The position numbers and the translations under genes were made by a program. This document shows, piece after piece, positions 23,465 to 36,633 of a DNA stretch of 64,000 nt (within the stretch, counting starts at the first letter, position 1; each line of letters begins with the position of its first letter). The notes below the pieces were generated by a model. It saw only the letters and a list, made by a program, of their open reading frames with translations, was not told the origin of the DNA and did no database searches. The stretch is from Planctomycetota bacterium. Lineage in GTDB: Bacteria > Planctomycetota > JAJSAM01 > JAJVHW01. The stretch lies in assembly GCA_965248445.1 (NCBI GenBank), contig CBDFJG010000004.1:512001-576000 (forward strand), given 5' to 3'.

Positions 23465-23708
23465 CAAGGCAAACATGAGGCACGCAACGCGAGACCGCGG
23501 TCTCATCATCGCGGCGCAACGACTGCCGTAAACCACCACCCCGACTGCATCTCCGGTTCGAGGTCGACCCCCAGCCCATCCGCGATTCTATTGATGTAGT
23601 TGGTGCGCCGCGAGCCACACTGCATCCAACACGATCCAACGCGCTCCAGCCTGGACCCCTCCGCAGCCGACTCCATGTGCGTTTCCTTAAGGCACACGTA
23701 GGGCACAC
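23465..23708. mobile_element. att-like junction 1 (left arm 23465-23485, core 23548-23602, right arm 23688-23708)
   Basis: Core encodes NYINRIADGLGVDLEPEM on the minus strand; arms CAAGGCAAACATGAGGCACGC and TAAGGCACACGTAGGGCACAC. Confidence 0.85.
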
Positions 23709-23880
23709 ACGGCGTTAGCGCAGATAGGGCGTTGCGCGCCCCGCTCCGGAGCGTTCACTGAGTGCGCATGGCGTCGAATCGTACCGACGGTGACGAGCCT
23801 TGCGCACTCGGAGGTCTAGCCGTTGATCCGCGGCATCCGGGAGCGGATACTCGCGCTTGAGGTTTCCGTGCGAAAGGGGA

Positions 23881-24978
23881 ATGCACATGACGATGCGAAC
23901 AACCGTGACCGCCGCCTTGGTGGTGCTTCTGACGGCACCGGCGCTGGCCGACACGATCCGCGTGCCGGGCGACCACGCCACGATTCAGGCGGCCGTGGAT
24001 GCCGCCGGCAACGGCGACGAGATCCAGATCAGGGGCGGCACGTACGCGGAGGCCATCGTCGTGATGGACACGGCCGACCTCACGATCATCGGCAAGCGCG
24101 GCGCGACCATCGAACCGCCTGGCAGCGACGAAGGGATCACCGCGCAGAACTGCGTCGGTCTCGTCATCAAGGGACTGCGGTTCGAGGGCGGAGGACGCGG
24201 GATCTTGGTGTCGGGGTGCGACAACGCGCGCATCGAGAAGTGCCGATCGAGCGACAACCAGAACGGGGGGTTCGAGATCCGAGCCTCGCAGAACGTGACC
24301 GTCACGAAGTGCAGGGTCGAGGGGGGCCAGGGCGAGGGAATCAAGTTCGGTGACGGCAACCCGGACCAACAGGTCACTGGCGGTGAGGTCTCGAAGTGCC
24401 GCGTGCGCGACGTCAGCGGGGATGGATTCCGCATCAATGCCAACGGTTCCACGATCTCGAAGTGCAGGTGCGACGGTGCCGAGAGCGGATTCGATGTCGA
24501 GGATGCGAGCCAGGGAGTCACGGTCGAGAAGTGCCGCTCGTTCGACGTGTCCGACGAGGCGTTCAAGACCAACGCCCCCGGGACCAACTTCGTCAAGTGC
24601 CTCGCGAAAGACGCCGACGAGGAGGGCTACGACGTCGAGGCCGACATGTGCGAAGTCGAGAAGTGCAAGGCGATCGACTGTCGCCGCGGAATAGAGTTCG
24701 AGGGAGTGACGAGCGGCATGGCCGCGAACTGCAAGCTGATCAAGTGCCGGGAGGTCGGCGTCGCCCTGTTCGGAGCAACCGGGGTCACGGTCGAGGGCTG
24801 CCTCTCGAAGAAGGCCGGTGACTTCGGGTTCCACGTGCGCGACGACTCGAACACCAACACCCTTACGAAGAACAAGGGCGTCAAGAACGGCGAGGCGGAT
24901 CTGCGAGACGAGAACGGCGAAGGATCGAACACGTACACGGACAACAAGTTCAAGGTCGAGGACTTCTCGAGTCCCTAA
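23881..24978 (+). CDS. Secreted right-handed parallel beta-helix repeat protein
   Basis: Signal peptide, IRVPGDHATIQAAVDAA..GD.I.IRGGTY, repeated xxKC beta-helix turns; AAAGGGGA upstream. Confidence 0.85.
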   Translation: MHMTMRTTVTAALVVLLTAPALADTIRVPGDHATIQAAVDAAGNGDEIQIRGGTYAEAIVVMDTADLTIIGKRGATIEPPGSDEGITAQNCVGLVIKGLRFEGGGRGILVSGCDNARIEKCRSSDNQNGGFEIRASQNVTVTKCRVEGGQGEGIKFGDGNPDQQVTGGEVSKCRVRDVSGDGFRINANGSTISKCRCDGAESGFDVEDASQGVTVEKCRSFDVSDEAFKTNAPGTNFVKCLAKDADEEGYDVEADMCEVEKCKAIDCRRGIEFEGVTSGMAANCKLIKCREVGVALFGATGVTVEGCLSKKAGDFGFHVRDDSNTNTLTKNKGVKNGEADLRDENGEGSNTYTDNKFKVEDFSSP

Positions 24979-25136
24979 CAAGGGCGAGTGAGCTCCGGGC
25001 GCTCCTCCGGGTCGCTACTCAGCGCGGCTCGTCCCCCTCACGAGAGGAGCCTCCATGCCCCGTTCCCACGGCAGACCTGCTGCGAACCGCCATCGGCGCG
25101 CGAGCAGCGCAACGACTGACCCGCAGGGACATCTCC

Positions 25137-33816: not shown

Positions 33817-33907
33817 AGCGCGACCGCGTGCTCCGGGAACGCGGCGGCTTCCGCGCGCCGCGAGCAGCCCCGCCTGACGGCGCGGGTAGTGGTTACGTGG
33901 TGAAGCG

Positions 33908-36175
33908 TCAGGTCGTGACGGAACTGGCGGGGCGGAAGCCGAGGTCGGCGTTCCGGCCCTCCGGCGAGAGCCTGAAGCGGATCGCCGCCCGCGCGAACCC
34001 GACGGTGCTGACCCAGCACCCGCCGCGGATGACGCGCGACACGGAGGCCGTGACGTGCGGCTCGAACAGCGAGGTCGTCCAGTCCCAGAACGAGCCCGCG
34101 GCATCGACCATGCCGTGCACCGACGTCGCCGTCGGGAACGCCCCCACCGGCTCGGGCTGGGTGGGCTCGTCGCGGGCGTCACGGTTCTTGCACAGCGAGG
34201 GGTGCTGGAGGTCGCCCCACGGGAACCGCCGGCCGTCCACGCCGCGTGCGGCCTTCTCGCGCTCCTCCTCCGTCGGCAGCCGCCACTCCCGGCCCGTCAC
34301 GTTCGTCTTCCACTCGCAGTACGCCACGGCGTCGTGCCACGAGACCCCCATGACCGCGATCGCGGTCTCGAAATCCTCTCCGTACGCCGCAACGCAGCGC
34401 TCGCGCGCCGCGCCCTCGACGATCACCGGGAGCGTGCGGTAGACACCGTCCTCGTCGCGCTCCATGTACGCACCATCGCCCTTGGTGTTGGGGAGGAGAG
34501 CCGCCGCAGCTTCGATGCCCTCGTCCCCTTCGACGGCCGCGAGAAACTCCCCCCACTCCCCGAACGTCACCGGCGCCCTGCGGATCAGGAAGTCGGGCAG
34601 CTCCTTCGTCGTGGTGTCCTTGCCCTCGCCGTACACGAACGGCCCGGCCGGCACGTAGACGAACTCCTCCCCGATGTCCTCCTCGGTCCGCATGTGCACG
34701 GCGCCCTTCCATACGCGGCCGCGCGTGATGTGGATGGGGTATCGCACGTCGCGGAAGCCGTCTTTGCGGAGCACGCAGAGGTAGCTGCCCATCGGGAGCG
34801 CCGTCGCCGCGACCGGCGTCGCCCCGAGCGAACGCTCGCCCGTCGGGACCAGCACACCGTCCTGTTCCTCGAAGCGAGAGAGCAACACCTCCGCACCGGA
34901 CGGATCGGAGGTGAGCACCAAGGTGCCGTCCCCGGCGATGAGTCCTTCGTGGCGCCCGTCGTCGTATCGCGTGAGCATCGTCAGCGCGTGTGCCGCATCG
35001 TCCGCAGCACCCTGAAGCTCGGTCTCGGCCAGTCGCGTCGCCCACAGGTCGCCGAGCGCGCAGGTCGCCGTGGTGTTCTTCTCCTCGGCGGCGAGGGCTG
35101 CATTGAGCAGCGCAGTCGCGTCGGCGAAGGCCACCGCCATGTCGCGCCGCAGGTCAGTGGCCACCCGACGGGCGATCAACAACGGCCGGGTCTGCGAGAC
35201 GGGCTGCCAGGGCTTGAAGTCGCCCTTCATCGCGTCGGCTGCCTTCTCCGCGGCGTCGGCCTCGGTGCGCAGCGACTCGTAGCGCCGCAACTGGTCGATG
35301 CCCTGCTTCGCCAGCGCCTCCGCCTCCTTGTGCTTGCGCGCCCGCTCCGCGCGGCCGTCCAGCCAATCGCGCAGGGACGCACCGAACTCGCGCGCGGTGT
35401 CCGGGCGATCTGCGGGAGCGCGCGACATGGCCTGCTCGCACAACTCTGCGAGCGGCTCGGGGACCGGACGGCGGGGATTGCGGGTCCGCACGTCGGCGAA
35501 CTCGCCCGCGCGCACCTTCGCGAGCAGTTCCATCCCCCCACCCTCGTACGCCGGGTGCAGCGCCAGCATCTCGTAGAGCAGGCACCCGAGCGCGTACACG
35601 TCGCTACGCCGGTCGGACGGCGCGCCCGAGGCCTGCTCGGGGCTCATGTAGGGGATCGTGCCCTTGATCGCGCCATCGACGGTCATGAGCGCGTCGATGC
35701 CCGCAGTGCGCACCGTGTCGGTCGCATCGTCCGCGAAGTCGTCGTACTCGTCGAACTCCCCCTCGTCCCCGGTGTCCGCGGCGACCTTCGCGATGCCCCA
35801 GTCCATCACGTGGACCTCGCCGTACTCCCCCAGCATGATGTTCTCGGGCTTGATGTCGCGGTGGATCACGCCCTTCTCGTGCGCGAAGTGCACCGCCTCG
35901 CAGATGCGTTCGAGGATCGATGCCAGCTTGTGCAGCGTGTACTCGCGGCGCAAGGTCTTCGACCCGACGAAGAGATCCTTCAGCACCTCGGCGAGCGTGC
36001 GTCCACGCACCAGCTTCATCGTGAAGTAGATCTGTCCCGAGGACTTGATCCCGATGTCGTGCACCGGCGGGATGCCGGGGTGCTCGAGCTGGCTGGTCGC
36101 CTGCGCCTCCGCCACGAACTTGAGGCGGTGCGCCGGCTGCCCCGCCCAGTCGTCGCGCAGGACCTTCATCGCCAC
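33908..36175 (-). CDS. Ser/Thr kinase - PEGA-like - FGE-sulfatase fusion, 5'-truncated (likely pseudogene)
   Basis: VAMK, HRDIKPEN, DWG and a C-terminal FGE domain; no Gly-rich loop in frame upstream of DLRRQVAMK. Confidence 0.8.
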   Translation of the reverse strand: MAMKVLRDDWAGQPAHRLKFVAEAQATSQLEHPGIPPVHDIGIKSSGQIYFTMKLVRGRTLAEVLKDLFVGSKTLRREYTLHKLASILERICEAVHFAHEKGVIHRDIKPENIMLGEYGEVHVMDWGIAKVAADTGDEGEFDEYDDFADDATDTVRTAGIDALMTVDGAIKGTIPYMSPEQASGAPSDRRSDVYALGCLLYEMLALHPAYEGGGMELLAKVRAGEFADVRTRNPRRPVPEPLAELCEQAMSRAPADRPDTAREFGASLRDWLDGRAERARKHKEAEALAKQGIDQLRRYESLRTEADAAEKAADAMKGDFKPWQPVSQTRPLLIARRVATDLRRDMAVAFADATALLNAALAAEEKNTTATCALGDLWATRLAETELQGAADDAAHALTMLTRYDDGRHEGLIAGDGTLVLTSDPSGAEVLLSRFEEQDGVLVPTGERSLGATPVAATALPMGSYLCVLRKDGFRDVRYPIHITRGRVWKGAVHMRTEEDIGEEFVYVPAGPFVYGEGKDTTTKELPDFLIRRAPVTFGEWGEFLAAVEGDEGIEAAAALLPNTKGDGAYMERDEDGVYRTLPVIVEGAARERCVAAYGEDFETAIAVMGVSWHDAVAYCEWKTNVTGREWRLPTEEEREKAARGVDGRRFPWGDLQHPSLCKNRDARDEPTQPEPVGAFPTATSVHGMVDAAGSFWDWTTSLFEPHVTASVSRVIRGGCWVSTVGFARAAIRFRLSPEGRNADLGFRPASSVTT

Positions 36176-36495
36176 CTGGCGGCGCAGGTCCTGCGGGCGT
36201 GAAGGCTCCCGCCGCGGCGGCCGCGACGGCCTCCGTTTCGCCGGGCGTCGCCGCCCGCGTCATCACGCTCATCCGCCCGAACGCCGATCGATTGGCCATG
36301 GTGCTGCCTCCCGCGGAACCGGGGAGGAGACTACCCGTCCGGAAGCGATGTAACCCCGGGGGCTCTCGGGAGTCCTTACTCCTGACGCCGTCGACCGGGC
36401 GGCGCTCGTAACCAAGCGAGGTGGAGTAGCAGGTCGCATGCGGAGACGCTGATGAACTGGCGCTCACACCACGACGCGGCGCGCGCTCCAATCCC

Positions 36496-36633
36496 TAAGG
36501 CACACATAGGGCACACGGAACGCGCCTGCCGTCTCAGTTCCCCGGTGACGCGCTCGGCGTAAGTCCTTACTGCAGCTTCATCTCCGGCTCGAGGTCGACA
36601 CCCAGACCGTCCGCTATTCTATTAATGTAGTTG
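36496..36633. mobile_element. att-like junction 5 overlapping the 3' end of the intact AhpD/CMD gene (arm 36496-36516, core 36579-36633)
   Basis: Perfect arm 62 bp beyond the core; the core is in frame with the gene. Confidence 0.88.

Follow-up and report, generated by a model that had tools for sequence, protein, structure and literature searches.

This study analyzed a 64,000-bp stretch of the genome of a Planctomycetota bacterium (hereafter the window; G000:C4:512001-576000 in our numbering, from a 5.4-Mb genome that is 92% complete), in which the 3' end of an AhpD-like selenoprotein gene (ahpD) is repeated beside pairs of 10-bp repeats. The results revealed that five copies of a 55-bp core divide the region into cassettes without an integrase. 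The double 10-mers are very probably arm-type sites of a lambda-like tyrosine integrase, whose elements accreted in tandem at the 3' end of ahpD. The original prediction, made from the letters of the window, had proposed such arm sites with phased accessory sites between them, and this was the best supported of the readings weighed below.

The target gene encodes an AhpD-like, peroxidase-related selenoprotein. Its product scored 122.9 bits against TIGR01926 (cut-off, 81.8), belonged to the CMD family, and carried TGA at the CxxU position. Exactly one TGA was present in all 16 gene matches (14 of 17 genomes of the class), and a tRNA-Sec was present in the genome. The AhpD-like CxxU family is already known and is listed in PMC2398784. 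The gene and its core are as follows:

36567..37154, minus strand: target gene (attB host), AhpD-like/peroxidase-related selenoprotein of 195 amino acids (aa), with an in-frame TGA at C-F-Y-U
36579..36633, plus strand: core of the intact gene and gene-proximal attachment (att) site, coding for the last conserved 18 residues (core comparison)

The 55-bp core corresponds to the final 18 codons of this gene, read on the minus strand. In the 11 copies outside the gene, variation was concentrated at third codon positions (0.227 vs 0.03 and 0.076 at the other two), and most copies ended with their own short tail and stop codon. Together, these features are a hallmark of elements that insert into the end of a gene and rebuild it; restoration by elements entering a gene end is described for tRNA targets (PMC4383910). 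The target and the element ends share a common core and the target gene is restored, as expected of att sites. The crossover probably lies at the gene-5' edge of the core, at about 36627-36633.

Double 10-mers, all in direct orientation at the junctions, start at 23465 (five mismatches to the 21-mer), 23688 (one), 25474 (none), 29563 (none), 33796 (three), and 36496 (none). The left pairs (23465, 29563, and 36496) stop 62 bp short of the cores at 23548, 29646, and 36579, and the right pairs (23688, 25474, and 33796) begin 85 bp past the 55-bp cores at 23548, 25334, and 33656. On re-measurement, the coordinates and both distances in the original prediction were exact; the repeats themselves are real, but their identity had been overstated, with exact copies at only three of the six sites (25474, 29563, and 36496). 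The arms and remaining cores are listed from the gene outward, with the end types alpha and beta explained below:

36496..36516, plus strand: left arm pair, alpha type, exact, 62 bp from the core (mismatch count and end-type comparison)
33711..33816, plus strand: right end of junction 4, an 85-bp spacer with 10-bp-phased repeats and an arm pair (three mismatches, start 33796)
33656..33710, plus strand: core copy 4, with one amino-acid change
33585..33606, plus strand: left arm pair, beta type, with a variant first unit (GGCTGA) and a period of 12, 49 bp from the core
29646..29696, plus strand: core copy 3, with the last 4 bp gone and no right spacer or arm
29563..29583, plus strand: left arm pair, alpha type, exact, 62 bp from the core
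25389..25494, plus strand: right end of junction 2, an 85-bp spacer and an exact arm pair (start 25474)
25334..25388, plus strand: core copy 2, with a beta-type left flank from which the arm is deleted, adjoining a radC N-terminal fragment
23603..23708, plus strand: right end of junction 1, an 85-bp spacer and an arm pair (one mismatch, start 23688)
23548..23602, plus strand: core copy 1
23465..23485, plus strand: left arm pair, diverged alpha type (five mismatches), 62 bp from the core

When the 21-mer was searched on both strands of the 5.4-Mb genome with up to four mismatches, all five matches fell inside the array. In this genome, the arm motif pair occurs only within the core array and is not scattered genome-wide, as the original prediction had anticipated. 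At five mismatches, 4 of the 10 genome matches lay outside the array, so the 23465 site is credible by position and not by sequence; the region around it (23380-23529) was 87% identical to an end in G005, one of seven genomes of the same family (G001 to G007). A matrix scan of the genome placed only the six array sites above threshold, in a circular test whose matrix was trained on these sites.

The 85-bp spacer between core and right arm was strongly periodic. Its autocorrelation at lag 10 was 0.46 vs 0.29 in shuffles (z 10.5, from 10 spacers that are related and hence not independent), confirming the approximately helical-turn phasing of the motifs described in the original prediction; helically phased accessory sites between core and arm are matched as a pattern only. 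Autocorrelation at lag 3 was under chance level, and variation across codon positions (0.23/0.21/0.19) showed no clear codon bias. This missing bias, together with a second minus-strand frame that is equally open, led us to reject a coding role for the spacer. The same two observations bear on whether the repeats form a regulatory operator or a repeated non-coding RNA or leader with no recombination role, which we consider very unlikely. Direct-repeat pairs are a typical operator shape; by one count, 9 of 10 junctions had the ahpD frame open across spacer and arm, and the frame was stop-free in another translation set. However, the other frame is just as open, and the motif is restricted, genome-wide, to the vicinity of duplicated gene ends, where the neighboring cargo is unrelated and lies on either strand. 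A promoter scan returned 0 sites.

We further compared the array with those of relatives. Extra cores (one to three each) were present in six of the seven same-family genomes, with none in the stretch fetched from G007. In order-level relatives the gene stood alone (four genomes fetched of five with the gene in that family). Among 401 genomes of the phylum, with two candidates scored per genome, the core matches listed outside the family were single and ran on into the gene. Fourteen right ends were compared (3 here, 10 in relatives, and 1 at a metagenome locus); the arm lay at 85 bp in 10 and at 84 bp in 2, and the other 2 (G005 and G006) had spacers cut short by 41 and 23 bp. Homologous loci keep this right-hand distance, in line with the constraint that had been predicted.

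The arm sequences were of the types GGCACAC, GGCACAAG, and AGCCATG, and three types of left end were distinguished. Alpha ends, at 62 bp, occur three times here and in G006; beta ends, with a variant first unit at about 49-51 bp, occur at junction 4, in G004 and G005, and at the metagenome locus L073; gamma ends, at 40 bp, occur in G002 and G004. Paired direct repeats at a fixed distance were found on both sides (85 bp in 10 of 14 right ends, and 62 bp in all 4 left ends of alpha type). The constant 62-bp left spacing originally proposed holds within alpha ends, but the other end types use their own distances. The supposed half site left of junction 4 is really the conserved beta variant pair, and the two-armed junctions, which had been taken for attP, are instead chimeric attR+attL (attI-type) joints of neighboring elements. 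No left arm was detected at 13 of the 23 cores, some of which are array ends.

The end types also help to separate arm sites from an alternative in which the double 10-mers are sites for an excisionase, that is, a recombination directionality factor (RDF), or for a host factor, and the integrase arms are other motifs. RDF sites likewise consist of short direct repeats close to attL and may overlap the integrase promoter, as reported for TorI (PMC2951348). In this array, however, the pair is outermost on both sides and direct, and a different phased repeat lies inside it on one side only, as in the lambda layout (PMC4880445); moreover, the pair sequence changes between end types in step with integrase subclades. 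The alternative is therefore unlikely.

The arm pattern was largely restricted to such arrays. Of 15 pattern matches in the eight family genomes, 13 lay within ahpD arrays and the other 2 formed one overlapping orphan triple. The pattern gave no match in viral contigs, two loci in the genome collection (the G006 array and an orphan without core or integrase), and one locus, without integrase, in the metagenome collection. Orphan arm-like repeats were observed as a triple at G006:C14:18998-19028 (L063) and as a pair at L046:10001 in a Lentisphaeraceae contig, neither with an ahpD core or an intact integrase.

Spacer identity between G005 and G006, which belong to different genera, was 92%, compared with 66% for their ahpD over 171 bp, and the three spacers of this genome were 72-78% identical to one another. 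These values indicate that the ends arrived separately and moved across genera. The cargo of relatives' arrays consists mostly of toxin-antitoxin, defense-like, and kinase genes. A homolog of the gene carried by cassette A, the gene-proximal cassette of the window, stands behind the same arm type in G005 (76% aa identity, and 84% nucleotide identity over 1648 bp, vs 73% for ahpD); in both genomes it lies directly behind the arm, at a different array rank, the contig order of G005 being inferred. The same HigBA toxin-antitoxin module was also observed at the gene-proximal cassette ends of G001 and of the metagenome locus (L057:12340-12400 and L073:2060-2110).

Five similar copies within 13 kb of a metagenome-assembled genome could also arise from local duplication of the ahpD 3' end or from misassembly. 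Nevertheless, the three local spacers are no closer to one another than to those of other genera, the cargo differs at each copy, and short-read contigs span four of the five cores, which makes this explanation extremely improbable. The spanning contigs, from public runs, cover cores 1, 2, 3, and 5 (the gene junction); they come from one sample, possibly the source sample, so they are not independent, and contigs drop rare forms. Core 4 was unspanned among the pieces listed because a 31-mer common to junctions 1 and 4 breaks contigs there. One contig joint between cores 1 and 2 was rejected; with 22 letters on one of its sides and 10 letters that were foreign, it was taken as another organism's gene.

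We then searched for the integrase. PF00589 tyrosine recombinases were absent from the window and had 22 matches elsewhere in the genome, and 113 integrase queries gave no match to the window. On the array contigs of G001, G002, G003, G004, G005, G006, and G007, PF00589 gave no match, and PF07508 serine recombinases were absent from the array contigs of five genomes. Twelve segments with two cores on one contig (six genomes) contained 0 intact integrases and 1 remnant. Cis-mobilizable elements (CIMEs), as defined in PMC5704250, provide a framework for these units. The PF00589, 113-query, and PF07508 scans showed no integration gene of their own. Likewise, no transfer gene, including relaxase and conjugation families, was found among the Pfam matches of the scanned window open reading frames (ORFs), several small ones of which had no family. 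Cassette A retains attL and attR intact; cassette C has both arms and a clipped core 3; cassettes B and D and segment E, left of junction 1, each have one broken end.

The wider searches were also largely negative. Near 93 integrase ORFs of relatives, 60 of whose regions were selected without XerC/D-like and weakest rows, no double arm motif was found apart from two single weak matches. Protein scans of viral contigs gave no relative. An integrase profile at 1e-55 gave no match in the 401 phylum genomes, an uninformative result with four candidates scored per genome and no positive control. A 34-member integrase family was rejected as helper; of its six copies here, the two that have visible att ends lie at tRNA fragments and have a different arm repeat. 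This family occurs in seven of the eight family genomes, mostly preceded by an HTH_17 gene; its copies in this genome are at C2:11946 and at C4:22513, 90947, 287429, 1082943, and 1286550, and three of them follow RecD-like and primase-like genes. We also rejected an arm encoded by an integrase C-terminus, since it would be wrongly oriented and since, in related genes, that end overlaps a convergent excisionase. Of the co-occurring integrase that the original prediction had suggested identifying, the window contains none and no intact cognate was found in the genome, but a candidate clade was found through a relative.

That relative is G004, in which the sole trace that the 113 queries found among the array loci (L055:6550-6968) is a frameshifted and truncated integrase N-terminus running in the same sense as ahpD. 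Full-length metagenome relatives were 64-81% identical to the remnant, exceeded the PF00589 cut-off, and had invariant catalytic residues (R, K, H, R, H, and Y) in 14 aligned proteins. When the first 14 residues were compared with the translation of the beta and gamma left arms, at least 5 of 7 positions matched in 5 of 59 family proteins, vs 1 of 310 control N-termini (own gene calls). P0009, P0028, and P0038 matched the gamma arm in one frame, P0011 matched it in another, and P0036 matched the beta arm at 6 of 7. These arm-encoded N-termini suggest that the integrase gene starts right behind the left arm; in several relatives, the called N-termini that read through the arm are gene-caller upstream extensions. 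All five proteins and the remnant fell in one 33-row clade (Shimodaira-Hasegawa-like approximate likelihood ratio test 98, quick tree). The clade holds no integrase of this genome, where the best intact match was 36% identical to P0003, and among the full-length phage matches listed, the best were <27% identical to the clade. The P0003 model contained a three-strand-plus-helix N-terminal domain (predicted local distance difference test score, about 80-86) and aligned over residues 16-167 with lambda Int 1z1b (Z 9.8, root-mean-square deviation 9.8). From these protein comparisons, we infer that the clade may supply the cognate enzyme of the sites.

Several findings weigh against the arm-site interpretation or against this candidate enzyme. 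The G004 remnant lies approximately 930 bp inside the gamma left arm and does not abut it, and no integrase traces were found behind the arms of the window. The alpha arm, which is the end type with exact copies in the window, was matched by 0 of 59 family proteins, and P0009 and P0028 are near-duplicates among the five that matched an arm. The metagenome clade proteins come without DNA context, and none was seen beside an ahpD core; they could serve another target whose arms are similar. The isolated N-terminal domain had no structural match at Z of at least 5, and the match to the arm-binding family PF14657 was weak (E 0.065). By-eye inspection of the core boundary for inverted core-type sites around a 6-8-bp overlap found no clear symmetry, and about half of the junction halves in the window are broken.

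Sister lineages with DNA context showed a gene end, about 20 bp, a GGCAC-type arm pair, and then the integrase. In G005 (L119) and G004 (L146), related integrases lie directly behind the 3' end of a rho-like gene, together with a convergent excisionase-like gene. In this genome, a sister-lineage integrase truncated by an insertion sequence (IS) lies at C1:214021 (C1:213500-214100; L234:1501-2100), behind the end of a PSCyt2/DUF1549-like gene; its first arm unit matched the ahpD alpha unit at 9 of 10 positions. A prophage-like region at G000:C2:795000-809600 (L069), with capsid, tail-like, and tape-measure-like ORFs assigned by inspection, ends in a sister-lineage excisionase and integrase.

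On the basis of these layouts, we propose a mechanism in which a heterobivalent tyrosine integrase would use the 3' end of the AhpD-like selenoprotein gene as its chromosomal target. Each element would bring the last 18 codons of the gene plus its own short tail and stop, and integration would restore the gene. The circular attP would run in the order arm pair, 85-bp spacer, core, 40-62-bp spacer, and arm pair. The integrase N-terminal domain would bind the arms, and the excisionase would bind the phased spacer, whose approximately six helically phased 10-bp repeats are likely excisionase (RDF) sites. In autonomous elements, the integrase gene would begin right behind the second arm pair; an arm so placed probably doubles as an autorepression site, as in KplE1, in which the integrase promoter and the attL arms overlap (PMC2951348). 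Newcomers would enter at the gene-proximal site and push older elements outward, leaving hybrid attR+attL junctions, and loss of the integrase would leave CIME-like cassettes (compare PMC5704250 and PMC4880445). Cassettes whose two ends are intact (A best, C partly) should be open to excision by a visiting helper of the same clade, and the others would be relics.

Whether such movement still occurs was weighed separately. An account with a slightly less than even chance shares the arm-site reading and differs on present activity: all the units are relics whose own or tandem-partner integrase was lost in place, with no further movement, and the tidy arms are just young. It fits the absence from this genome of an intact clade member and the broken ends (junction 2 left, junction 3 right, the 18.7- and 29.2-kb remnants, and the shortened spacers of G005 and G006). 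The frameshifted and truncated G004 remnant would be decay caught in progress, and the IS-cut integrase is a second remnant in this genome. However, decay in place should have left more than one remnant in the 12 two-core segments, and the cassette A cargo is more similar between this genome and G005 than ahpD is and stands at a different rank. These two observations and the exact spacing favor mobilization in trans. We therefore advance tentatively, as possible though on balance doubtful, a standing non-autonomous system in which small integrase-free units, with complete lambda-type att ends (arms, RDF array, and a replacement gene end), circulate between planctomycete genera, inserted and excised by visiting helpers of the clade; the many broken ends, the decaying remnant, and the absence of a helper from this genome count against it. 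If it is true, the ahpD locus is an integron-like array of phage-type sites whose end types are matched to integrase subclades.

The cargo and remnants between the junctions are listed below:

33908..36169, minus strand: cassette A cargo, a Ser/Thr kinase-PEGA-FGE sulfatase protein (family scan)
29700..33570, unstranded: cassette B cargo, HicA toxin and probable HicB, NDH-2-like oxidoreductase, glyoxalase-like protein, and DJ-1/PfpI
29149..29401, plus strand: element-end remnant, the sequence just inside a right arm and a gene start, 82% identical to G006, with arm and core lost
26100..29115, plus strand: cassette C cargo, type III polyketide synthase, methyltransferase, and FAD oxidoreductase
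23881..24978, plus strand: cassette D cargo, a right-handed beta-helix protein
18715..18763, plus strand: further left-end remnant, 92% identical to the sequence inside the junction-3 arm, with arm and core lost

The remnant at 18715-18763 suggests that the array once extended at least that far. The far end of cassette B and the right end of junction 3 are replaced by a collapsed 3' fragment of a katG-like (catalase-peroxidase-like) gene at about 29700-29785, which matches the end of a gene at C2:257.6-259.7 kb. Beside junction 2 lies a broken N-terminal radC fragment at about 25050-25290; its label comes from the match to the genome's own intact RadC (C4:716.2-716.8 kb), and a protein search with the fragment gave nothing. 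At 8372-9067 of the window, a long tandem repeat in multiples of 18 bp lies within an ORF (8060-9376) resembling an extracytoplasmic-function (ECF) sigma factor. A second small array of the same plan, with three copies of a 12-bp core, is located at G000:C3:252186-257600 (L068:12187-17600). Two cores, followed by an approximately 100-bp spacer and a GGCACAAG-type arm pair, surround integrase-less cargo, and behind the third core come an arm pair that differs from these, an integrase, and a convergent HTH_17 gene that an IS has cut.

Structures of this kind are known; new here are the target gene, the candidate clade of integrases, and the types of end. AhpD was not found as an integration site in the literature searched, which lay outside subscription papers and supplementary target catalogues, where it may be listed, and a paper that came up there mentions AhpD solely as an enzyme under regulation; a search by title or abstract start found no planctomycete case of such an island. 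Few genetic tools exist for most Planctomycetota lineages. For this phylum, the array adds a target gene and a candidate clade of integrases, together with predictions of its arm, RDF, and core sites. Island finders that require an integrase in each unit (Islander, PMC4383910) would miss such arrays.

The layout of the sites has clear precedents in phages. In lambda, KplE1, and HK620, paired direct arms likewise flank the core with phased accessory sites between them (PMC4880445 and PMC2951348), and Xis and integration host factor (IHF) sites of the lambda type lie between arm sites (PMC4880445). The integrase gene of KplE1 and HK620 likewise begins behind the gene-proximal arm (PMC2951348), and mycobacteriophage attP has similar paired 11-bp arm repeats (PMC3203893). 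In contrast to the described TorI layout, the phased repeats here lie on the distal-end arm rather than at the integrase promoter. Not every system has such a regular 10-bp RDF array, since RdfS of ICEMlSym binds close to an arm site with no consensus motif (PMC11963761).

Tandem islands also provide comparisons. Dehalococcoides ssrA islands are likewise stacked behind one gene and bounded by copies of its 3' end, and 15 were reported without integration modules; they differ in that their recombinases are of the serine type, their repeat at ssrA is 20 bp long, and many of them keep the module (PMC3146451). SCC-like cassettes beside SCCmec at rlmH are likewise recombinase-less and stacked at the end of a protein-coding gene. 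They are rich in defense and toxin-antitoxin genes and include a tested case of mobilization by a recombinase encoded elsewhere, but they use serine recombinases, short att sites, and a helper within the same array (PMC11470126).

A further resemblance is to integrons. Integron arrays and clusters of attC sites lacking integron-integrases (CALIN) are rows of small accessory units with repeated recombination sites between them and no adjacent recombinase. No adjacent IntI accompanies the present array, the window having no tyrosine recombinase. The sites here are direct-repeat arms around a gene-end copy, of approximately 250 bp, unlike the palindromic attC, and the units are multi-gene and in either orientation.

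The closest comparison is with CIMEs and tandem accretion in ICESt1/ICESt3 and other streptococcal elements, which, as PMC5704250 describes, have likewise lost integration and transfer genes and kept attL and attR, and form tandem stacks at a gene 3' end with chimeric junctions. By their gene content and ends, the ahpD cassettes appear CIME-like, with mobilization putative. They differ from CIMEs in that no autonomous element was seen in seven arrays, and in their 2-12-kb units, selenoprotein-gene target, and planctomycete host. The array makes it testable whether such integrase-less tandem islands are dead or are mobilized in trans.

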